Notes under the pieces: generated by a model
The model's database searches: none
The model's input: only the letters and a program-made list of their open reading frames with translations
What the model was told of the DNA's origin: nothing
Assembly: GCA_964608675.1 (NCBI GenBank)
Contig: CAZSOZ010000003.1
Location: 32,001 to 96,000, forward strand
Direction of reading: 5' to 3'
Source: an uncultured archaeon
GTDB taxonomy: Archaea > Iainarchaeota > Iainarchaeia > Iainarchaeales > 1-14-0-10-31-34
DNA length: 64,000 bases
Position numbers and translations under genes: made by a program
In this document: positions 25,775-37,490 of the stretch, piece by piece
Layout of the letters: each line of letters starts with the position of its first letter
Numbering within the stretch: position 1 is the first letter of the stretch

Positions 25775-26437
25775 ATGAATAAACCTTTTCTTTTTGGAGT
25801 TTCAACAGCCAACAGAGGTTTTTTACAGGATTTTTTTCGGGTTATTCACGAAAAAAATATTTCAGTTAAAGATAATATCGGAGTTGAATACACTCGTTAT
25901 CATTATGACAGCCTGCCAAGAACCCAACAGGATTTTTTTTGGAAAGGGGTTATTGATTCTCTTAAAAGAAAGGGGTTCAAGGAAATTGTTTTTCTTGACG
26001 ACCATAAAACAAGAATGCAAATTGATGCAGTTCATGAAAAAGGCCGTCCTTTAACTGAAAAAGAAGCAGAACTTGTTTTTGAAAGAGAAAAAATTTTTAA
26101 ACAAAGGTTTTCTGATTGCAGGGCAGGAATTTTAGGTGCAGCACATGCATTAAATTTAAAGCAGGACCTTAAAGCCAATGTTTATTTGGATTCTATTTCT
26201 TTTTTAATGCATTCAAAAAATTTGATTCCTCTTAATGCAATTGATTTGCTTGATAAAAGAAAAAGTCTTGCAAGATATTTTGTTGTGCAGGATATTTTGT
26301 CTGGAAAAATCAGGCTTCAAAAAGGTTTTGTTAAAGTGACTAAAATAAAAACAAAAAAGAAATCCACAAAAAAAAAATTTAAGAGAAGAAGAAAGCCGGC
26401 AAAAACTATTTTAAATCAGAGAAGAAAACCTAAATAA
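25775..26437 (+). CDS. Orphan protein with very basic C-terminal tail
   Basis: 220-aa ORF ending KKKSTKKKFKRRRKPAKTILNQRRKPK. Confidence 0.65.
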   Translation: MNKPFLFGVSTANRGFLQDFFRVIHEKNISVKDNIGVEYTRYHYDSLPRTQQDFFWKGVIDSLKRKGFKEIVFLDDHKTRMQIDAVHEKGRPLTEKEAELVFEREKIFKQRFSDCRAGILGAAHALNLKQDLKANVYLDSISFLMHSKNLIPLNAIDLLDKRKSLARYFVVQDILSGKIRLQKGFVKVTKIKTKKKSTKKKFKRRRKPAKTILNQRRKPK

Positions 26438-27206
26438 AAGCGTTTTTTAGTGCGTGCCTGCATTCACAGTCTTTTTGTGTGTCTATTATTGGAACAACTT
26501 TTTTGATTAATTGCTTTAATTTTTTACTGTTTTCTTTCATTATTTTGAGAACGCTTTCCACGTTTACAGGAGTTTTTTTCCATACATCATAATCGGTTAT
26601 TGTTGCAATTGAAGCATAACAAATTTCTGCTTCTCTTGCCAGAACTGTTTCTGGAACCAAAGTCATTCCAATTACATCTGCATTCCATTTTCTAAAAAGC
26701 ATGCTTTCTGCTTTGGTTGAAAACCTTGGGCCTTCAATTACAATGCAGGTTCCTTTTTCATGAAAACCAAATTTTAGTTCTTTTGCTGATTGAATCAATT
26801 TTTTTCTTAAATCAGAGCAGAATGGTTCTGCAACAGAAATATGACATACTTTGTTTTTGTCGTAAAAAGTCTGCTGTCTTTTTGTGGTTTTGTCTATGAA
26901 TTGGTCAACAAAAACAAATTCTCCTGGCTTAAATTTTTCTTTCAGGCTTCCTACTGCTGATGAAGCCAGAATTTTTTTTGCTCCAATTTCTTTTAGTGCT
27001 TTAATGTTTGCACGATAATTCACGTTTGTGGGGTTGATTGTATGTTTTGTTCCGTGCCTTGAAAGCAATGCAACTTTTTTTCCTGATATTTCTCCGATTT
27101 TAATTGTGCTTGAAGGTTCGCCGAATTCAGTTGAAATTTTTTTTTCTTCTTTTAATTTAAATAAATCAGGGTCTTCAAATCCTGTTCCACCTATTAATCC
27201 AATCAT
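26430..27206 (-). CDS. mtnP: 5'-methylthioadenosine phosphorylase
   Basis: IGGTG, SRHG, NYRANI, SAVGSL, EGPRFSTKAES, GMT..PE, TDYD. Confidence 0.95.
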   Translation of the reverse strand: MIGLIGGTGFEDPDLFKLKEEKKISTEFGEPSSTIKIGEISGKKVALLSRHGTKHTINPTNVNYRANIKALKEIGAKKILASSAVGSLKEKFKPGEFVFVDQFIDKTTKRQQTFYDKNKVCHISVAEPFCSDLRKKLIQSAKELKFGFHEKGTCIVIEGPRFSTKAESMLFRKWNADVIGMTLVPETVLAREAEICYASIATITDYDVWKKTPVNVESVLKIMKENSKKLKQLIKKVVPIIDTQKDCECRHALKNAFI

Positions 27207-27213
27207 TTTTTTT

Positions 27214-27735
27214 TCACTCTGAACTGTAATTAATTAAAGAAAAAACTTTGTAGGGCTTTAATTTTTTTCTTCCTTTCAAAAAACTTAATTCAATTAAAAA
27301 ACAAAATCCAATTATTTTTCCGCCGGCTTTTTCAATTAATTCTGCTGTTGCTTTTGCTGTGCCTCCTGTTGCCAGCAAATCATCTACAATTAAAACGTTC
27401 TCGTTTTTTTTTACTGCATCCAAATGCATTTCAAGTTTGTCTTTTCCATATTCTTTTTGATAGCTTGCTTTTTGTGTTTTAAAAGGAAGTTTTCCAGGTT
27501 TTCTTATTGGAATAAAAGATGCATTTAATTTGTATGCAATTATTGCTCCAAAAATGAATCCTCTTGCTTCTGTTCCTGCCACTACATTAATTTTTTTGTT
27601 TTTGAAGGGCTCCAGCATTCCTTGAACTGCTTTTTTTACTGCTTTTGGGTCTTGAAGCAATGTTGTTATGTCTTTGAATATTATTCCTTTTTTTGGAAAA
27701 TTTGGAATGCTTCTGATTTTTTCTTTTAAGTACAT
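27214..27735 (-). CDS. apt: Adenine phosphoribosyltransferase
   Basis: FPKKGIIFKDIT, EARGF, RKPGKLP, VDDLLATGGT. Confidence 0.96.
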   Translation of the reverse strand: MYLKEKIRSIPNFPKKGIIFKDITTLLQDPKAVKKAVQGMLEPFKNKKINVVAGTEARGFIFGAIIAYKLNASFIPIRKPGKLPFKTQKASYQKEYGKDKLEMHLDAVKKNENVLIVDDLLATGGTAKATAELIEKAGGKIIGFCFLIELSFLKGRKKLKPYKVFSLINYSSE

Positions 27736-27750
27736 TAACTCACTTTTTTT

Positions 27751-28713
27751 TTATTGTTTTATTTTTTTTCTCCAGTAATCAAGCAAATCCTGCATTGTTT
27801 TTTCAAAGGGAATTTCAGGTTTCCATCCTGTTTGTTTTCTGAATTTAGTTGAATCTCCTAATAAAATTTGCACGTCTGACGGCCTTAATCTTTTGGGGTC
27901 TTGTTTTACTTCAAATTCTATTTTGCTTATTTTTTGGAGTATGTCAACTATTATTTGTATTTTGTATGCTTTTCCTGAAGCAATATTGTATACTTCTCCG
28001 GGAATTCCTTTTTCTGTTGCAAGCCAGTATGCTTTAACCATGTCTCTTACGTCTGTGTAATCTCTTTTTGCTTCAAGGTTTCCTACTTTTAATACAGGTT
28101 CTTGTTCTCCTGTTTCCATTAATGCAACTTGTTTTGCAAAATTGCTTGTAACGTATTGTTCTCCTCTTCTGGGGCCTTCATGATTAAAGGCTCTTGTTCT
28201 GATGATTTTTAATCCATAGCTTTTATTGTACTGGTAGCCAAGCAAATCCATTGCCACTTTGCTTACCCCATAAGGACTTAATGGCCTTAATGGATTGTCT
28301 TCTGTTATTGGAACTTCGTTTTCTTTTACTAATCCGTATTCTTCGCTTGAGCCTGCAATTTGAATTCTTATCTCTTTGTTGTGTTTTTTTATTGCTTCAA
28401 AAATATTTAATGGCCCGAAAATGTTTGCGTTCATTGTTTCTATTGGAGATTTCCATGAACTTGGCACAAAAGCCTGTGCAGCTAAATGAAAAATGTATTC
28501 AGGGCTGATTTCTTCTATTGTTTTGTCTACTCCATATGAATCAGTTATGTCGCATTCTACTAAATTTATTTTTTTGTTTATTTCTTTGATGTTTGATAAG
28601 TCTTCGTTTTTTCTGTAGGTTCCGTATATTTCTCCTAATTTGTTTTCCAGAATATATTCGCTTAAATGGCTTCCTACAAAACCATTTATTCCTGTTATTA
28701 ATACTTTTTTCAT
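27751..28713 (-). CDS. GDP-mannose 4,6-dehydratase / GDP-4-keto-6-deoxymannose reductase family SDR
   Basis: GINGFVG, SSEEYG, SPYGVSK, FNHEGPRR, GNLEAKRD. Lacks the GQDG typical of Gmd, so it may be Rmd-like. Confidence 0.85.
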   Translation of the reverse strand: MKKVLITGINGFVGSHLSEYILENKLGEIYGTYRKNEDLSNIKEINKKINLVECDITDSYGVDKTIEEISPEYIFHLAAQAFVPSSWKSPIETMNANIFGPLNIFEAIKKHNKEIRIQIAGSSEEYGLVKENEVPITEDNPLRPLSPYGVSKVAMDLLGYQYNKSYGLKIIRTRAFNHEGPRRGEQYVTSNFAKQVALMETGEQEPVLKVGNLEAKRDYTDVRDMVKAYWLATEKGIPGEVYNIASGKAYKIQIIVDILQKISKIEFEVKQDPKRLRPSDVQILLGDSTKFRKQTGWKPEIPFEKTMQDLLDYWRKKIKQ

Positions 28714-28731: not shown

Positions 28732-29577
28732 TTAAATTATTCCTTTCCATTTATTTTTTGCTTTTTCGTATCTTTCTATGGTGTCTGTGGGAAACCATTG
28801 CCCGTTGTAAACATATCCGTATAATTTTCCTTCTTCGCTTAATTTTGGAAAAACTGCTTCTTCAATTAAAGAGTATCCTTTTGGAAGCATGTCAATTACT
28901 TCGGGTTTTAGAATATATGTCCCTGAATTAATTAAATTTGATTCTGGTTTAACTGGTTTTTCTATGAATCTTTTTATTTGGTTTCCTTGCAATTCAATTA
29001 CTCCAAAGTTTTTGGGGTCTTTAACTGAAGTTAATGCAATTGTTGCATATGCATTATTTTTTTTGTGGAATGTGTGCATGTCATTCAGGTTAATGTTTGT
29101 TAGGTTGTCTCCGTTGAACATAAGAAATTCGTCAAGAAGCAAATTTTTTGCAAGCCTTAACGGCCCGCCTGTTCCTAATGGTTTTTTTTCTATAACGTAT
29201 TCAATGTTCATATCCCATTTTTCTCCTGTTCCAAAGTATTCTTTGATTTGTTCTGCTTTATATCCTAAAGCCATAACTGCGTTTTTTACATGATATTTTG
29301 AAAGCAGTTCAATTACGTATTCTAAAATAGGTTTTCCTTTTATTCCAATCATTGGTTTTGGCGTATTGTTTGTCAAAGGCCTTAATCTTGTTCCTTTTCC
29401 TCCTGCTAGAATAAATGCTGTTGACAAATCAGCGCTTTGAATTGCTTTTCTTACAAGATATTCGACTGCATGGCTTCGGTTTCTGATTTTTTGTCCGTCA
29501 ATTTTTTTGTCTATTGCGTTTAGAACTCCGGAATCAATATTAATAGTAACCCTTTCCTTTTCATTTTTTTTGTTCAT
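28732..29577 (-). CDS. NikR/CopG-type ribbon-helix-helix fused to an intact sugar-phosphate nucleotidyltransferase
   Basis: ERVTINID...IRNRSHAVEYLV RHH, then LAGGKGTRLRPLT..PKPM, LGTGG, NGD, FIEKP. Confidence 0.9.
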   Translation of the reverse strand: MNKKNEKERVTINIDSGVLNAIDKKIDGQKIRNRSHAVEYLVRKAIQSADLSTAFILAGGKGTRLRPLTNNTPKPMIGIKGKPILEYVIELLSKYHVKNAVMALGYKAEQIKEYFGTGEKWDMNIEYVIEKKPLGTGGPLRLAKNLLLDEFLMFNGDNLTNINLNDMHTFHKKNNAYATIALTSVKDPKNFGVIELQGNQIKRFIEKPVKPESNLINSGTYILKPEVIDMLPKGYSLIEEAVFPKLSEEGKLYGYVYNGQWFPTDTIERYEKAKNKWKGII

Positions 29578-29598
29578 AATTTTTCATATTATTTATGA
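29574..29598. promoter_or_regulatory. Candidate RHH operator TCATA-N5-TCATA-N5-TATGA (copy 1)
   Basis: Half-sites at 29574, 29584 and 29594. Same architecture as 31265-31289. Confidence 0.65.
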
Positions 29599-29652
29599 TT
29601 ACATTCCTTTTAAAAATTAACCGTTGTTTTATTTTTTTTAGGTTTTTTTTGC

Positions 29653-30465
29653 ATGCTTGGAATAAGTTCTAGTTATTTTGCTTCAAGGGGTTTTTCTGTT
29701 TATGATTCAGTTCAGCAGGCGTATTCTTTGGGTTTTAAGGCAATTGAATTAGGTGCAGCGCATTCTTTTGAAGAAAATTTAAATGAAACAATCCAAAAAA
29801 TTCATGACGATTTTGATGTGTTTTTTACTTTGCATGGATTGTTTCCCCCAAGAAAAGAAAAAGTCTGGTTTAATCCTTCTTTGGGTTTAACTCAAACAAA
29901 TAAAGAAATTATTGATTCTTTTTTTGTTTTTGCTGAACTGGCCGGCGCAAAACTTATTGGCTTTCATCCAGGTTTTTTGTTTGAAGTTTCTTATGTTGAA
30001 AAACAGGGTTTTGGGGAAACCAAAAATTTAAGGCCTTTGGAAAAAACTGTTTCCTGGAATAATTTGTTTGATGTAATGAATTATTTTAAAGAAAAAAACA
30101 GCAATAAATTTTTTCTTGCAATTGAAAATATTACTTCAACTGAAGAAAAAGCTTTGGTTTACGGAAAAAATTTTGAGAAAGTTTTCAGTAAATTTCCTTT
30201 TTTTGGTTTGCTTTTTGATTTAGGGCATTCTATTACAGACAAAACTTATTCTGATTTAATGGAATTCAAAGACAAAATACAGGAAATTCATTTGCATAAA
30301 CCTGAAGGAAAAAAAATCCATCTGCCTGTTTCTGAAAAAGACCTTGAACTGCTTAAGCCAATAAAGCAAATCAATTCAATTCCTGTTATAATTGAGCATT
30401 TTAAGGGAATAACAGAAAAACAAATCCTTGAAGAAAAAGAATTGTTTGAATCTTTTTTTGGTTAA
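29653..30465 (+). CDS. Xylose-isomerase-like / AP endonuclease 2 TIM-barrel (sugar phosphate isomerase/epimerase)
   Basis: LHG, GFHPG, IENI, FDLGHS, EIHLH and IIEH metal-binding motifs. Confidence 0.8.
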   Translation: MLGISSSYFASRGFSVYDSVQQAYSLGFKAIELGAAHSFEENLNETIQKIHDDFDVFFTLHGLFPPRKEKVWFNPSLGLTQTNKEIIDSFFVFAELAGAKLIGFHPGFLFEVSYVEKQGFGETKNLRPLEKTVSWNNLFDVMNYFKEKNSNKFFLAIENITSTEEKALVYGKNFEKVFSKFPFFGLLFDLGHSITDKTYSDLMEFKDKIQEIHLHKPEGKKIHLPVSEKDLELLKPIKQINSIPVIIEHFKGITEKQILEEKELFESFFG

Positions 30466-31268
30466 ATCATTTTTTTGGCTTTTTCGTAGTCTTTTTTTGT
30501 GTTAATGTTTAAGTAGATTCCTTGGAAAGGGTATCCTGTTAGAAGTCCTTTTTTTGCAAGTTTTGGGAATAAGTCGTTTGAAATGCTTTTCATGTTTCTT
30601 GAAATGTATTTGAATATTTCAGGTTCAAAAATATAGTAGCCTGCATTAATCAGATAACTTGAAGCTTCTGTTTTTGGTTTTTCTTTGAATTCAGTTATTT
30701 TTTTTCCTTGTAATACTGCTACTCCGTAATCTTTTGGGTTGTTTACGGTTGTTAATGCAATTGTTGCAGTTGATTTGTTTGCCTGATGAAATGAAAGCAT
30801 TTCATTTAAATTAAGACTGCATAATGTGTCTCCGTTTGCCACCAGAAAAGTGTCTTTTAGCTGGTTTTTCATTCTCAGCAAAGGCTCTATTGTTCCTGAT
30901 GCTTTTTCTAATTCAAGAAATTCTGCATCAATCTTTTTTTGGTTTATTTCTTGAATTATTTCTTCTTTTTCTGCATCCATGCTGACAGTAATTTTTCCTG
31001 CATTGAATTCCTGTAAATAGTTTATTACTCTTTCAATTAATGTTTTATTATTTAATTCCAGAAGAAACCTGCTTTTTTTTCCTGTTCCTTTAATGAAATC
31101 TTTTCCTCCTGCTAAAACAATTGAATTTTTTATTTTGTAGTCTGAAAGTGTTTTGGATAAAAGGTATTCTACTGCCTGGCTTCTGCTTCTGATGCTTAAT
31201 CCGTCCACTATTCTGTCTACCTGCTTTAATATATCGTCTTTTATTGTAATTGTAATTCGTTCTCTCAT
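30462..31268 (-). CDS. Ribbon-helix-helix fused to a degenerate nucleotidyltransferase (probable pseudoenzyme regulator)
   Basis: ERITITIK...IRSRSQAVEYLL RHH. LAGGKDFIKGTGKKSRFL replaces GGxGTR..PK; NGD and EKP are retained. Confidence 0.85.
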   Translation of the reverse strand: MRERITITIKDDILKQVDRIVDGLSIRSRSQAVEYLLSKTLSDYKIKNSIVLAGGKDFIKGTGKKSRFLLELNNKTLIERVINYLQEFNAGKITVSMDAEKEEIIQEINQKKIDAEFLELEKASGTIEPLLRMKNQLKDTFLVANGDTLCSLNLNEMLSFHQANKSTATIALTTVNNPKDYGVAVLQGKKITEFKEKPKTEASSYLINAGYYIFEPEIFKYISRNMKSISNDLFPKLAKKGLLTGYPFQGIYLNINTKKDYEKAKKMI

Positions 31269-31289
31269 ACTTTCTCATACTATGTATGA
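31265..31289. promoter_or_regulatory. Candidate RHH operator TCATA-N5-TCATA-N5-TATGA (copy 2)
   Basis: CTCATAC direct repeat plus CTCATAC-tat-GTATGAG inverted repeat over the start codon. Confidence 0.7.
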
Positions 31290-31359
31290 GTCATTCTTAT
31301 TTTAAAATCTTTTTATGCCATTTTACTTTATTGTTTATTTTTTTTGGGAAGTGATTTTT

Positions 31360-32625
31360 TTGAAGATTTCTGTTATTGGAACAGGTTATGTTGGACTAAT
31401 TTCAGGCACAGGTCTTGCTTTGAATGGCCATCAAATTGTCTGTATTGACAGCAATAAAGAAAAAGTTGATTTAATTAACAGTAAAGTTCCTCCTATTTTT
31501 GAAAAAGGCCTTAAGGAAGCCTTGAATAAAATTGTTCCTGACAGGCTTTCTGCTTCATCTGATTTAAAAAAAGCTGTTTTGGATTCTGATGTTTCTTTTG
31601 TTTGTGTTGGAACTCCGTGCAGTAAAGAAGGAAAATGCGATTTGACTGCAGTTGAATCTGTTGTAAAGGAAATTGCTTTGGCTTTAAAGGAAAAGACTTC
31701 TTTTCATACAATTGTAATTAAGAGCACTGTTGTTCCTTCCACTACTGAAAAACTTGTTTTGCCTTTGCTTGAAGAATTTTCAGGAAAAAAGCTGGGAGAG
31801 TTTGGCTTGTGTATGAATCCTGAAACTTTAAGGGAAGGTTTTGCTTTAGAGGATTTTTTGAATCCTGACAGAATTATTCTTGGAATTCAGGATGATAAAA
31901 CCAGAAAAGCAATGAAGGAAGTTTATTCTTCTTTTTCTTCTCCTAAATTTTTTTGCGGTTTTTCTGAAGCTGAAATGATTAAATATGCTTCCAATTCCTT
32001 GCTTGCAGCAAAAATTTCTTTTATTAATGAAATCGGAAACATCTGCAAGAAACTTGAAATAAATACTTATACTGTTGCTGAAGGAGTTGGATTAGACAAA
32101 AGGATTTCCCCTCATTTTTTGAATGCAGGAATAGGTTTTGGCGGAAGCTGTTTTCCTAAAGATGTTTCTGCTTTGATTGCAAAAGGAAATGAACTTAATA
32201 TTGAAACTTTTTTGTTGGATTCTGTAATGAAAGTGAATGATTTTCAGCCTAAAATTTTTTTGGATTTAATTAAATCTAAAACAGAATTAAAAGAAAAAAA
32301 AGTTGGTGTTTTGGGGCTTGCGTTTAAGGCAGGAACTGATGATATAAGGGAAAGTCGTTCTATTCCTGTAATTAAAATGCTTTTGGATGAAGAAGCAGAA
32401 ATTCTGGCTTTTGATCCTCAGGCTGAAGAAAACATGAAAAAAGAGTTTCCTGAAATTTCTTATTTTGATTCTGCTCAAAAAACAGTTGATGAAAGCGATT
32501 TAGTTTTGATTTTAACTGAATGGAGCGAATTTTCTTTTCTTGAATTTAAAAACAAGCCGGTTTTTGATGCAAGAAACATTTTTAAGAATAATAAACCCAA
32601 AAACTATGAAGGGCTGTCTTGGTGA
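31360..32625 (+). CDS. ugd: UDP-glucose 6-dehydrogenase
   Basis: GTGYVG, VGTP, KSTV, NPETLREG, GFGGSCFPKD, DDIRES. TTG start at 31360. Confidence 0.93.
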   Translation: MKISVIGTGYVGLISGTGLALNGHQIVCIDSNKEKVDLINSKVPPIFEKGLKEALNKIVPDRLSASSDLKKAVLDSDVSFVCVGTPCSKEGKCDLTAVESVVKEIALALKEKTSFHTIVIKSTVVPSTTEKLVLPLLEEFSGKKLGEFGLCMNPETLREGFALEDFLNPDRIILGIQDDKTRKAMKEVYSSFSSPKFFCGFSEAEMIKYASNSLLAAKISFINEIGNICKKLEINTYTVAEGVGLDKRISPHFLNAGIGFGGSCFPKDVSALIAKGNELNIETFLLDSVMKVNDFQPKIFLDLIKSKTELKEKKVGVLGLAFKAGTDDIRESRSIPVIKMLLDEEAEILAFDPQAEENMKKEFPEISYFDSAQKTVDESDLVLILTEWSEFSFLEFKNKPVFDARNIFKNNKPKNYEGLSW

Positions 32626-32632
32626 TGTTTGA

Positions 32633-33517
32633 ATGAGTGAAGAAATTAAACCTGTAAAAAAAGCTGTTATTCCTGCTGCAGGGCTTGGAACAAGGTTTCT
32701 GCCTGCAAGCAAGGCTGTTCCAAAGGAAATGTTTCCTGTTGTTGACAAGCCTGCAATCCAGTATATTATTGAAGAAGCAGTTGATTCAGGAATAGAAGAC
32801 ATTATTATTGTGACAGGAAAAGACAAAACTGCTATTGAAGATCATTTTGACAGAGTTCCTGAATTGTATTCAAAGCTTGAAGAAAAAGGAAAGAAAGACT
32901 GGCTTTTAATGCTTGAAAAAATTGATGGTTTGGCTGACATTCATTTTATCCGTCAGAAAGAGCCTTTGGGTTTGGGTCATGCAGTTTTGTGTGCCAAAAA
33001 ACATATTGGAAACGAGCCTTTTGCTGTGCTTCTTGGAGACGATTTAATTTTGTCTGATAAACCTGCTTTAAAGAAATTAATTAATATTTATGAAAAAAAT
33101 GATTCTTCTGTTTTGTGTGTTCAAAATGTTCCCAAAAAAGAAATTCCTTTGTATGGAGTAATTAAATACAAAAAAGTTAACGGACAAATTGTTGTTGAAA
33201 ACATGGTTGAAAAACCTCCTATAAGCAAGGCTCCTTCAAGTCTGGCTATTGTTGGAAGATATTTATTGAAGCCTGAAATTTTTGGGATTCTTGAAGAAAT
33301 TCCTTTTGGCAAAGGAAAGGAACTTCAGTTAACTGATGCTTTAAGGATTTTGAATGAAATTGACAAACTAATGGCTTATGAAATTGATGACGGAAAATGG
33401 CTTACTGTTGGAGACAAAACAAGTTATTTGAAGGCCAACTTAGAGTTTGCTTTAAAGAGAGCTGAAATGAGAAAGGACATTCTTTTGTTTATTAAGGAAA
33501 TAAACAAGAGAGTTTAA
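32633..33517 (+). CDS. galU: UTP-glucose-1-phosphate uridylyltransferase
   Basis: AAGLGTRFLPASKAVPKEM, RQKEPLGLGHAV, LLGDD, ELQLTDA. Confidence 0.95.
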   Translation: MSEEIKPVKKAVIPAAGLGTRFLPASKAVPKEMFPVVDKPAIQYIIEEAVDSGIEDIIIVTGKDKTAIEDHFDRVPELYSKLEEKGKKDWLLMLEKIDGLADIHFIRQKEPLGLGHAVLCAKKHIGNEPFAVLLGDDLILSDKPALKKLINIYEKNDSSVLCVQNVPKKEIPLYGVIKYKKVNGQIVVENMVEKPPISKAPSSLAIVGRYLLKPEIFGILEEIPFGKGKELQLTDALRILNEIDKLMAYEIDDGKWLTVGDKTSYLKANLEFALKRAEMRKDILLFIKEINKRV

Positions 33518-33532
33518 TTAAGGTTTTTTTTT

Positions 33533-34465
33533 ATGATTAAAGTTTTGGTTTCCGGTGGAGCAGGTTTTATTGGAAGCCATTTATGTGACAAATTAATTGA
33601 AGAAAAAAAAGAAGTTTTTTGTATTGACAGTCTTGTTTCAGGAACAAAAAAAAACATTCAGCATTTAATGAAAAACAGTAATTTTCATTTTTTAGAACAA
33701 GATGTAAACAAACTTGTTTTTGAAGAAAAAGTTAATGAAGTTTTTCATTTGGCTTCTTTGGCTTCTCCTGCTGACTATTTTTCTAAGCCAATTGACACAA
33801 TGCTTGTGGGTTCAATTGGAACAAAAAATTTGTTGGATTTGGCTTTGAAGAACAAAGCAAAATTTTTGTTTACTTCTACTTCTGAAGTTTACGGAGATCC
33901 TTTGGTTCATCCTCAAAAAGAATCTTATTGGGGGAACGTTAATCCGATTGGAAAGCGTTCTTGTTATGATGAATCAAAGCGTTTTTCTGAAGCTTTAATT
34001 AAGGCTTTTGAAAGAGAATTTGAATTCAAGGGAAAAATTGTAAGAATTTTTAATACTTACGGCTCAAGAATGAGAATAAACGATGGAAGAATTGTCCCTA
34101 ATTTTATTAATCAGGCTTTAAACAATAAGCCTTTGACTGTTTATGGTTCAGGAAAGCAGACAAGAAGTTTTTGTTTTGTTTCTGACATGATTGACGGAAT
34201 AATTAAAATGATGAATTCTAATTTAACTGGTCCAATTAATCTTGGAAACCCTGAAGAGTATTCTGTTTTGGAGTTTGCAGAAAAAATTAAGAAAGCAAGC
34301 GGAAAAGAACTTGAAATAAAATTTTTGTCTGCTTTGGAGGATGACCCTAAACAAAGAAAACCTGATATTTCTCTTGCAAGAAAAAAACTTAATTGGAATC
34401 CTGAATTTTCTTTGGATGAAGGATTAAAAATTACTTTGGATTATTTCCGTAAGGCTAATCTTTAA
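33533..34465 (+). CDS. UDP-glucuronate decarboxylase (UDP-xylose synthase)
   Basis: HLASLASP, STSEVYGDP..HPQ.E.YWGNVNPIG.RSCYDE.KR, RIFNTYG, DDPKQRKPDI. Confidence 0.92.
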   Translation: MIKVLVSGGAGFIGSHLCDKLIEEKKEVFCIDSLVSGTKKNIQHLMKNSNFHFLEQDVNKLVFEEKVNEVFHLASLASPADYFSKPIDTMLVGSIGTKNLLDLALKNKAKFLFTSTSEVYGDPLVHPQKESYWGNVNPIGKRSCYDESKRFSEALIKAFEREFEFKGKIVRIFNTYGSRMRINDGRIVPNFINQALNNKPLTVYGSGKQTRSFCFVSDMIDGIIKMMNSNLTGPINLGNPEEYSVLEFAEKIKKASGKELEIKFLSALEDDPKQRKPDISLARKKLNWNPEFSLDEGLKITLDYFRKANL

Positions 34466-36771: not shown

Positions 36772-37490
36772 AAGGAGTAATTCTTGCTGGAGGAACCGGT
36801 TCAAGGCTTTTTCCTTTAACTAAAATTACAAACAAGCATTTGCTTCCAGTTTATAGTAAACCTATGATTTATTTTCCTATTGAAACTTTGCTTGATGCAG
36901 GAATAAAAGATATTTTGATTGTTTCAGGAAAAGAGCATGCAGGAGATTTTTTGAAGCTTTTGGGTTCAGGGAAAGAATTTAATGCAAGATTTACTTATGA
37001 AGTGCAGGAGGAAGCCGGAGGAATAGCCCAAGCATTGTCTTTGGCTGAAGATTTTGCTGACAAAGAAAAAATTGTTGTTGTTTTAGGAGACAACATTATT
37101 GAAGATTCAATAAAGGAACAAGCAAAAGAATTCCAGAAAACTGATTCTGCTTTCATTTTTTTAAAAGAAGTCTCTGATGCACAAAGATTTGGTGTTCCTG
37201 AATTAAATGGAAAAAAAGTTCTTTCAATTGAAGAAAAACCCAAAAAACCTAAGAGCAGTTTTGCTGTCACAGGAATTTACATGTATCCTCCTGAAGTGTT
37301 TAAAGTAATCAAAAATTTGAAGCCGTCTGCAAGAGGAGAATTTGAAATAACTGATGTAAATAATTATTTTATTAGGAAAGGAAAACTTAAAGCAAATTTT
37401 TTGCAGGGTTTTTGGACTGATGCAGGAACATTTGAATCCCTGTTTCGTGCAACAAAACTAGTTAAAGAAAAACTTCATAACTCTGAGTAA
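36768..37490 (+). CDS. rmlA: Glucose-1-phosphate thymidylyltransferase (short form)
   Basis: LAGGTGSRLFPLT..NKHLLPVY.KPMI, LGDN, SARGEFEITD, WTDAGT. Confidence 0.93.
   Translation: MKGVILAGGTGSRLFPLTKITNKHLLPVYSKPMIYFPIETLLDAGIKDILIVSGKEHAGDFLKLLGSGKEFNARFTYEVQEEAGGIAQALSLAEDFADKEKIVVVLGDNIIEDSIKEQAKEFQKTDSAFIFLKEVSDAQRFGVPELNGKKVLSIEEKPKKPKSSFAVTGIYMYPPEVFKVIKNLKPSARGEFEITDVNNYFIRKGKLKANFLQGFWTDAGTFESLFRATKLVKEKLHNSE

Follow-up and report, generated by a model that had tools for sequence, protein, structure and literature searches.

ORF A and ORF B are two paralogous open reading frames (ORFs) in a 64,000 nucleotide (nt) stretch of DNA from an uncultured archaeon of the Iainarchaeales (GenBank assembly GCA_964608675.1, contig CAZSOZ010000003.1, positions 32,001 to 96,000), referred to here as the window. 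Each encodes a predicted N-terminal ribbon-helix-helix (RHH) domain of the NikR type, fused to a short sugar-1-phosphate nucleotidyltransferase (NTase) domain, and in both promoters a 15-bp palindrome, TCATA-N5-TATGA, is situated between the TATA-like box and the ATG. With slightly better than even confidence, A and B are read here as autoregulating one-component repressors of the RHH class, B being a pseudoenzyme that would serve as a sensor and A a bifunctional enzyme and regulator. The source genome is 1.2 Mb in size, 94% complete and approximately 30% G+C, and the window is part of its contig C3. The closest named relatives of its proteins come from metagenome-assembled genomes of DPANN archaea labelled Micrarchaeota, Diapherotrites or simply 'archaeon'.

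ORF A (28732..29577, minus strand) codes for 281 amino acids (aa), with the RHH at approximately aa positions 6–47 and the NTase domain at positions 53–281. ORF B (30462..31268, minus strand) codes for 268 aa, with the RHH at positions 1–45 followed by a degenerate NTase domain. The two share a 37% identity over their full length (99/269, E-value = 8e-58). The Pfam family NTP_transferase (PF00483, cut-off 21.2 bits) matches A with an E-value of 1.1e-44 (153.3 bits) and B with an E-value of 2.9e-24 (86.4 bits). Beyond NTP_transf_3, A and B yield no further Pfam match at an E-value of 0.01 or better, the left-handed beta-helix included, and both chains end after the NTase domain; thus neither appears to carry a beta-helix. 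The first-pass annotation, made from the sequence alone, had described two paralogues of this architecture, and the ORFs, the Pfam matches and the NikR profile matches all bear it out. AlphaFold2 monomer models of A and B (mean predicted local distance difference test score, pLDDT, 91.7 and 88.6, respectively), built from alignments of 55 sequences for each family, both display an extended N-terminus, two helices, a short linker and the NTase fold.

The RHH domain of A (29437..29577, minus strand) has the strand KERVTINID and helices at positions 16–24 and 34–47 of the model. That of B (31134..31268, minus strand) has the strand RERITITIK and helices at positions 11–20 and 29–40. In neither monomer is the strand scored as beta, as is expected of a monomer when the ribbon forms in the dimer. 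The first 49 residues of B on their own match Pfam RHH_1 (21.2 bits, cut-off 20.5, E-value = 2.7e-4). The NCBIfam NikR model matches B residues 3–47 with an E-value of 8e-5, the 22.6 bits being far below its cut-off of 83. A profile built from 19 orthologous N-termini and run against the PDB gives the RHH of E. coli NikR (1q5v_A) an E-value of 9.7e-5 and P. horikoshii NikR an E-value of 0.018; CopG (E-value = 0.44) and CcdA are weak matches. The B strand, R-E-R-I-T-I-T-I-K, carries the R/T/T pattern of the NikR strand Q-R-V-T-I-T-L-D, and several RHH-NTase relatives have precomputed PF01402 annotations. A chance similarity to RHH was considered and rejected: the segment is kept in 120/120 best matches of A by reading (118/120 by regular expression), and in 118/120 best matches of B, the exceptions being one fragment and one frameshifted sequence. 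A search of the source genome with the RHH profile, taken to an E-value of 10, gives A and B as the only matches; PF01402 finds B and two small sub-threshold frames. On this sequence and profile evidence, the N-termini of A and B are NikR-type RHH domains.

In A the nucleotide-binding loop is intact. The motifs quoted in the first-pass annotation (GGKGTRLRPLTNNTPKPM) are present, NGD and EKP also being there, and the loop GGKGTRLRPLT..PKP, which reads GGKGTRLRPLTNNTPKP, displays the G-x-G-T-R-(L/M)-x-P-x-T...K feature, as had been claimed; it is a family-wide character. Residues G59, G60, G62, R64, P67, T69, K74, D157 and E206-K207-P208 are invariant in the A family, and 119 of the 120 best matches of A show an intact GxGxR(L/M) loop (loop and RHH tallies are regular expression counts over the 120 best matches each of A and B). 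The C-terminal metal site of A (window 28735-28800) reads WFPTDT, with the Asp seemingly shifted by two positions, whereas 40 of the 55 aligned relatives are WFDTGT-like. WFPTD(T/N) characterizes an A sub-clade of 13/55 aligned sequences, that of the window included, or 15/55 with two S-T-D variants. Because of this replacement A is better termed a near-intact NTase than a textbook one. Its best NCBIfam NTase model is mannose-1-phosphate guanylyltransferase (189.8 bits, cut-off 440). Neither A nor B reaches any NCBIfam equivalog cut-off.

The NTase domain of B is degenerate at both catalytic sites. In RmlA-type enzymes the loop Arg/Lys and two Asp residues have catalytic roles. The B loop reads GGKDFIKGTGKKSRF and lacks the G-x-G-T-R...K feature, while NGD and EKP are retained. 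The earlier claim that B had lost the Arg/Lys loop and kept the sugar side was read correctly, and the degeneracy is clade-wide: 118 of the 120 best matches of B are without an intact GxGxR(L/M) loop, vs 1/120 in the A list, and the loop length also varies across the B family. A loop defect private to the source genome is therefore rejected. Asn254 of B aligns to the Asp of the W-x-D-x-G metal site (WMDIG in GMPPB), so that the metal-site Asp is missing, and this column is Asn in 55/55 aligned B-family members (Asp/Asn counts are taken from the alignment; a C-terminal regular expression count, confounded by an earlier motif, was left unused). On the sugar-phosphate side D147 of the GD motif is nearly invariant, and K197 and P198 of EKP are invariant. 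In the RHH, residues R2, R4, R27, R29, S30, A32 and E34 are invariant. Judged from these alignments, B belongs to a conserved clade in which the catalytic motifs have been lost, whereas constraint persists on the fold, on the sugar-phosphate side and on the DNA-binding domain.

Both proteins could instead be autoregulated enzymes that sense nothing, the RHH merely setting expression independently of a ligand, and B could have remained an enzyme whose loop is unusual and whose substrate or chemistry may differ. The operator evidence given below concerns association of these proteins with their own promoters and is silent on ligands, B retains many pocket residues in addition to GD and EKP, and a few of its relatives hold the loop Arg. 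However, the uniform change of the metal-site Asp to Asn and the variable loop indicate relaxed catalytic constraint on a protein in which the fold and the RHH are strongly conserved, and RHH-NTase-like proteins that are still more degenerate exist. An explanation without sensing is thus considered unlikely.

The best solved relatives of A and B, in sequence and in fold, are GDP-mannose pyrophosphorylases (GMPPB, VTC1 and the Leishmania enzyme); for B, the top Foldseek matches are VTC1 and GMPPB with E-values of approximately 1e-19. Lower in rank are GMPPA and the short enzymes RmlA, HddC and glucose-1-phosphate (G1P) cytidylyltransferase, and the name GalF occurs in NCBIfam. GMPPA is a paralogue that senses GDP-mannose, and the first-pass annotation drew on it as an analogy; the idea of a dead paralogue holds, but the likeness does not extend to the beta-helix domain, which B does not have. 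B might nevertheless form a pair of the GMPPA/GMPPB or GalF/GalU kind, modulating a neighbouring active NTase (A or an RHH-less orthologue) mainly from protein to protein, with DNA binding being secondary. In 13 other genomes an A-type NTase whose loop is intact is found 0.04–5 kb from B, and GMPPA and GMPPB are among the fold matches. However, the beta-helix domain of GMPPA and GMPPB mediates their contacts, A and B are without it, and the RHH is the most conserved part of B. Such a pairing is rated improbable.

A and B joined through their RHH domains as heterodimers were considered as a general model and rejected. B co-occurs with an RHH-bearing A only in one family (f1), the neighbouring NTase being RHH-less elsewhere. 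Since the neighbours of B are mostly RHH-less, the A-type fusions mostly occur without B and the operators have diverged, a heteromer of A and B is unsupported. A complex prediction for two chains of B (alignment A1) gave a score of 0.02 and a mark of 0.42 and counts neither way.

The reading of A and B as autoregulating repressors draws on their promoters. The candidate operator of A, TCATATTATTTATGA (29584..29598), is found 6 nt upstream of the ATG of A in the 75-nt intergenic region between A and a divergent TIM-barrel gene. The same region holds a TATA-like box, TTTTAAAAATTA (29608..29619), which possibly serves both divergent genes. The candidate operator of B, TCATAC-TAT-GTATGA (TCATACTATGTATGA, 31275..31289), also ends 6 nt upstream of the ATG. 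A TATA-like box, TTATTTTAAAA (31298..31308), is situated 8 nt from it in the intergenic region of approximately 91 nt between B and the divergent UDP-glucose 6-dehydrogenase (UGDH) gene, and probably serves both transcripts. A possible third half-site, TCATAC (31265..31270), overlaps the start codon of B, 10 nt from the neighbouring half-site, as a direct repeat (TCTCATACT twice). The two window operators differ at position 6.

The window contains exactly two copies of TCATA-N5-TATGA (0.05 expected; at least two copies in 0/100 shuffles), a post hoc statistic because the palindrome was defined after both promoters had been inspected; the orthologue and presence/absence tests are the independent part. 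In the whole genome there are seven copies, vs none of the reversed control pattern. Five of the seven are in the 174 kb of non-ORF sequence left by a crude ORF mask, where a first-order Markov model expects 0.125, and 0/200 simulations reached five. A scan of the window shows the palindrome to be absent from the other promoters of the glycan-synthesis island. The proposal that the pair controls the whole glycosylation island is not supported: only two promoters in the 64-kb window carry the site, and the precursor operons are consequently the more likely scope of control.

The palindrome was followed in a comparative set consisting of the window and the B-orthologue loci from 13 other genomes of the same order (271,730 nt in total). 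There are 26 sites at no more than one mismatch, and 19 of these are in promoters of RHH genes: 17 flagged by script, 14 of them with the exact 6-nt gap, and two placed by hand (L042:10002 and L045:8649). The L045:8649 site has a 6-nt gap, as seen in L017; the position of the B gene in L045 was likewise set by hand, the ORF having been hidden by the ORF filter. All RHH-bearing A orthologues (6/6) carry the site with the 6-nt gap, vs 0/6 RHH-less A-type orthologues, and 13/14 B orthologues carry it at no more than one mismatch in the B-UGDH intergenic region. In every case with a 6-nt gap a TATA-like TTTAAA(A/T) box ends 8–9 nt upstream of the palindrome. Archaeal transcripts start approximately 25 nt downstream of the TATA box centre; with this geometry the start would fall inside the palindrome or directly behind it. 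RHH regulators can be judged by repeated half-sites of an operator close to the promoter, and such repeats are found at the level of sequence for both genes and their orthologues. The idea that the pair are regulators, put forward without any comparison of genomes, gains strong in-silico support from an operator-like palindrome conserved in both promoters.

The half-sites also vary together with the residues of the RHH strand. A passage of PMC7055735 gives the E. coli NikR operator as GTATGA-N16-TCATAC, and an enterobacterial NikR consensus, GTATGAT-N13/14-ATCATAC, is given in a passage of PMC545781. The TCATAC/GTATGA half-sites of B are identical to the E. coli hexamers as quoted there. R-T-T strands go with TCATAC-type hexamers in the 14 B loci and in 8/22 loci of a distant A-family set; in these eight, two TCA(T/C)A(C/T) hexamers in direct repeat closely precede the TATA box, at a spacing of exactly 10 nt. 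The distant set, 22 RHH-NTase loci at full length, was drawn from Woesearchaeota, Nanoarchaeota, Altiarchaeota and Parvarchaeota and from two contigs labelled as bacterial. R-T-N strands (six A loci) go with A/T in place of C/G at position 6, giving TCATAA..TTATGA (TCATAA/T), and R-S-T strands (L054 and L061) go with a TATTAC-N3-GTAATA palindrome at −20. Over the 22 distant loci the hexamer density is 12.5 per kb in the 110 nt upstream vs 1.8 per kb elsewhere, 6/32 of the upstream hits being trivial overlaps with the start codon. This covariation of hexamer and strand residues suggests a small recognition code for the RHH subfamily.

A mechanism can be proposed on these grounds. Each NikR RHH dimer reads one hexamer, and Arc, MetJ, CopG and omega place adjacent RHH dimers on neighbouring sites. 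The target of each protein would be the palindrome of its own gene, TCATAC-N3-GTATGA for B and TCATAA/T-N3-T/ATATGA for A, and two RHH dimers would occupy a site, one per hexamer, with centres 9 bp apart; with one dimer to a hexamer as in NikR, this spacing suits two adjacent dimers. The bound protein would overlap the transcription start and block recruitment of RNA polymerase, resulting in autorepression. B would also control the divergent UGDH-GalU-UXS-like operon, and A the TIM-barrel gene; B plausibly acts in both directions, because its palindrome abuts (at approximately 8 nt) the sole obvious TATA box, which is AT-symmetric. The NTase fold of B would act as a nucleotide-sugar sensor; a UDP-sugar of the neighbouring pathway is a plausible ligand, and ligand binding would alter DNA affinity. 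The NTase of A would feed the neighbouring GMD-like dehydratase while A sets the expression of its own operon.

Several points weigh against this interpretation. DNA binding, repression, the ligand and the sign of its effect, the oligomeric state and the enzyme activity of A are all inferred. The N-terminus of A alone scores 15.7 bits, under the RHH_1 cut-off of 20.5 (E-value = 0.015), and in the B monomer model the RHH has a pLDDT of approximately 70–76 with the N-terminal strand unformed. In the fourteenth B locus, L037, the palindrome has two mismatches. The spacing is uneven, the gap being 26–55 nt in L040, L041 and L046, and the L042 site is 128 nt upstream of B. Ten of the 22 distant A-family loci have no recognizable repeated hexamer, and the window count is post hoc, as stated above. 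The WFPTDT variant leaves the enzyme activity of A uncertain, and 4/120 proteins in the B list hold the loop Arg (GG...R(L/M)) and a further 2/120 have an intact loop, so B may have residual or altered catalysis.

Also to be set on this side are five other exact sites in the source genome (G000 C1:234225, C1:266876, C2:31824, C2:152092 and C7:37467). The genes downstream of these five sites encode Dxr, GAPDH, NadA (a B-type site, TCATACAAAGTATGA), a Glu/Leu/Phe/Val-type dehydrogenase and a transketolase N-terminal domain protein. Sites of the same type are found in G001 (upstream of transketolase and GAPDH), G003 (upstream of GAPDH and the dehydrogenase) and G005 (upstream of the NadA orthologue and transketolase). 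The mevalonate route is the usual one in Archaea; G000 C1:232978-234138 codes for a complete 1-deoxy-D-xylulose-5-phosphate (DXP) reductoisomerase with three Pfam Dxr domains (E-values of approximately 1e-39 to 1e-43). The outside sites could reflect another, global factor, or a regulon wider than sugar-nucleotide synthesis.

Carried further, the presence of similar palindromes upstream of five unrelated metabolic genes, kept at some orthologues, would make the palindrome the site of another factor or an element of promoter architecture, and the N-terminal domain of A and B a mere oligomerization module. However, the split between RHH-bearing (6/6) and RHH-less (0/6) A-type orthologues follows the presence of the domain, the hexamer is a NikR half-site with matching reading residues, the strand residues covary with it, and no further protein in the genome matches the RHH profile. 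Together these make another factor a very doubtful explanation. An action of the palindrome as RNA, by way of a 5′ untranslated region hairpin that affects translation or stability, is suggested by an inverted repeat near the start codon, but is extremely unlikely, as the TATA-like box 8–9 nt upstream puts the transcript start inside or after the palindrome under the usual geometry, arms of 5–6 bp rich in AT form a weak hairpin, and distant relatives carry their hexamers as direct repeats that precede the TATA box.

As autoregulating repressors A and B would resemble NikR most closely. NikR has the N-terminal RHH with the same strand pattern, is the best profile match, carries its ligand-binding domain C-terminal to the RHH, and reads the GTATGA and TCATAC hexamers that are the half-sites of B (PMC7055735, in the passage cited above). 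It differs in having a C-terminal nickel-binding tetramerization domain where A and B have the NTase fold, and 16 bp separate its half-sites, vs 3 bp in B, the relative orientation also being reversed. A second group consists of regulators fused to an enzyme. PutA combines an RHH with a proline catabolic enzyme, and BirA and NadR combine a helix-turn-helix (HTH) with adenylyl-transferring enzymes. Together with RbkR these have a DNA-binding domain and a pathway enzyme in one polypeptide, which A fits; none has a sugar-1-phosphate nucleotidyltransferase fold, and B, unlike them, seems to have lost catalysis. The principle is present in Archaea in RbkR, a winged HTH with a riboflavin kinase (PMC5397151).

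GMPPA (for GMPPB) and GalF (for GalU) show that a catalytically impaired sugar-1-phosphate NTase paralogue can be used for regulation; they lack a DNA-binding domain and act on the active enzyme from protein to protein. GMPPA and GMPPB chains are also longer, at 360–420 aa with the C-terminal beta-helix. RmlA, HddC, MurU and G1P cytidylyltransferase have a single-domain fold without beta-helix, like A and B, and A has their signature loop; they differ in having no RHH, and B differs further in having neither the loop Arg nor the metal-site Asp. In line with the first-pass annotation, which knew of none, no characterized example of an RHH joined to a sugar nucleotidyltransferase was found in the full-text literature, subscription papers and supplements being outside its coverage. 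The papers found on an RHH together with a nucleotidyltransferase concerned MNT/HEPN toxin-antitoxin modules.

Each paralogue is divergent from a sugar gene or operon, as had been noted: A from the TIM-barrel gene, and B from the UGDH, GalU, UXS-like and RmlCBDA genes. The TIM-barrel gene (29653..30465, plus strand) is xylose-isomerase-like (PF01261) and is convergent with B. Downstream of A, on the minus strand, are found a GMD-like 4,6-dehydratase-family SDR (27751-28713, after an 18-nt gap), an APRT-like phosphoribosyltransferase (27214-27735) and a PNP/MTAP-like phosphorylase (26430-27206). These same-strand genes (26430..28713) are spaced 7–18 nt apart, and A heads this operon. The cluster of A, SDR, phosphoribosyltransferase and phosphorylase is kept in most of 13 related loci, where the NTase occurs with or without RHH; purine-salvage genes thus accompany a sugar-nucleotide pair.

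On the other side, UGDH heads the operon divergent from B (31360..34465, plus strand), followed by GalU (32633-33517, above the equivalog cut-off) and the UXS-like SDR (33533-34465); RmlC/B/D/A continue the operon to position 37490. UGDH scores above the cut-off of the NDP-sugar dehydrogenase subfamily and is closest to AglM. Its first ATG, 31315, is probably not the real start; the TTG at 31360 is taken instead because the orthologues align from residue 16. A Shine-Dalgarno-like GGGAAGTGA precedes this TTG (window 31315-31362), and in the orthologues as well a Shine-Dalgarno-like GGAGTGAT/GGTGAT motif is often found before the UGDH start.

B and UGDH are divergent neighbours in 14/14 readable loci (the window and 13 others), with the same TATA/operator layout in most. 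The B-UGDH intergenic region measures 63–139 nt in most loci and 253 nt in L042, and typically contains one AT-symmetric TATA box. UGDH is usually followed by GalU or another NTase and then by the UXS-like SDR. In family f1 the other side of B is occupied by the TIM-barrel gene, then A, the dehydratase, the phosphoribosyltransferase and the phosphorylase. More distant genomes have an RHH-less A-type NTase there instead, directly downstream of B in L044 and L047.

The two genes are part of a glycan-synthesis island that extends from 27.7 to approximately 58 kb of the window, with RmlABCD, glycosyltransferases, methyltransferases, a flippase, an aminotransferase, a formyltransferase, a radical-SAM/B12 protein and a 2-epimerase. 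The segment 36768-58365, which follows the operon, includes RmlA, GT4 and GT2 glycosyltransferases, a C-methyltransferase with a zinc-binding domain and a flippase. It also contains a formyltransferase with a DegT aminotransferase and a GFO/IDH oxidoreductase, a B12-binding radical-SAM protein, a UDP-GlcNAc 2-epimerase and an LPG-synthase-TM protein.

B orthologues (E-value of 1e-60 or better) are present in 32 of 215 genomes sampled from the phylum and in 19 of the 58 high-quality ones, all from one order. B occurs once per genome, except for a second, truncated match in G002. By their source names, B-like proteins are also found in Aenigmarchaeota. A-type RHH-NTases occur widely without B, and the combination of RHH and NTP_transferase is widespread in DPANN archaea; a check of this distribution had been suggested with the original proposal. 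The RHH profile run against 1.84 billion sequences gives 606 cluster representatives at an E-value of 1e-3 or better and 153 at 1e-10 or better. The best 150 matches include 53 of 236–300 aa and 27 of 196–235 aa; among the 82 of these best 150 that have at least 196 aa, an intact loop is found by regular expression in six, in a census biased by a profile weighted towards B.

RHH proteins of approximately 200–217 aa give a weak NTP_transferase match or none, with NTase-like segments visible by eye. P0246, P0279, P0328, P0331, P0364, P0377 and P0381 form a short RHH set in which the C-terminus is a more degenerate NTase-like sequence or is blank in Pfam, and P0333 is a fusion of RHH with HATPase_c. 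The series suggests that a decaying NTase fold has been used repeatedly as the C-terminal module of this RHH. Two contigs with bacterial labels, L067 (Microgenomates, of the Candidate Phyla Radiation, CPR) and L068 ('bacterium'), carry full-length RHH-NTase fusions with 43–46% identity to A, matching from residue 6.

More tentatively, and on less than even confidence, RHH-(pseudo)nucleotidyltransferases may make up a widespread class of transcription factors in DPANN and other archaea that respond to nucleotide sugars. As a dead NTase, B would sense a UDP-sugar end product and feedback-control the UDP-glucuronate/UDP-xylose operon by way of its NikR-type operator beside a bidirectional TATA box shared by both transcripts, and A would be an active enzyme-repressor. 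Transcription factors that read nucleotide sugars are hardly known, and regulators of archaeal glycan precursors, above all in uncultured DPANN, are essentially uncharacterized. Supplied here are a protein family, a 15-bp candidate operator, a target operon of the UGDH-GalU-UXS-like type and a pair of active and inactive paralogues. Recombinant protein and short DNA probes would suffice to test all of these, and the organism need not be cultured. If the proposal is true, the A-type sites (GAPDH, transketolase, the Glu/Leu-type dehydrogenase and Dxr) and the B-type site (NadA) would link central carbon and NAD metabolism to the pools of nucleotide sugars, and such coupling would exist in a 1.2-Mb genome with very few regulators. 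It would then also give a clear example of a sensor derived from the fold of a metabolic enzyme, a pseudoenzyme on a NikR-like scaffold, with graded degeneration in its relatives.

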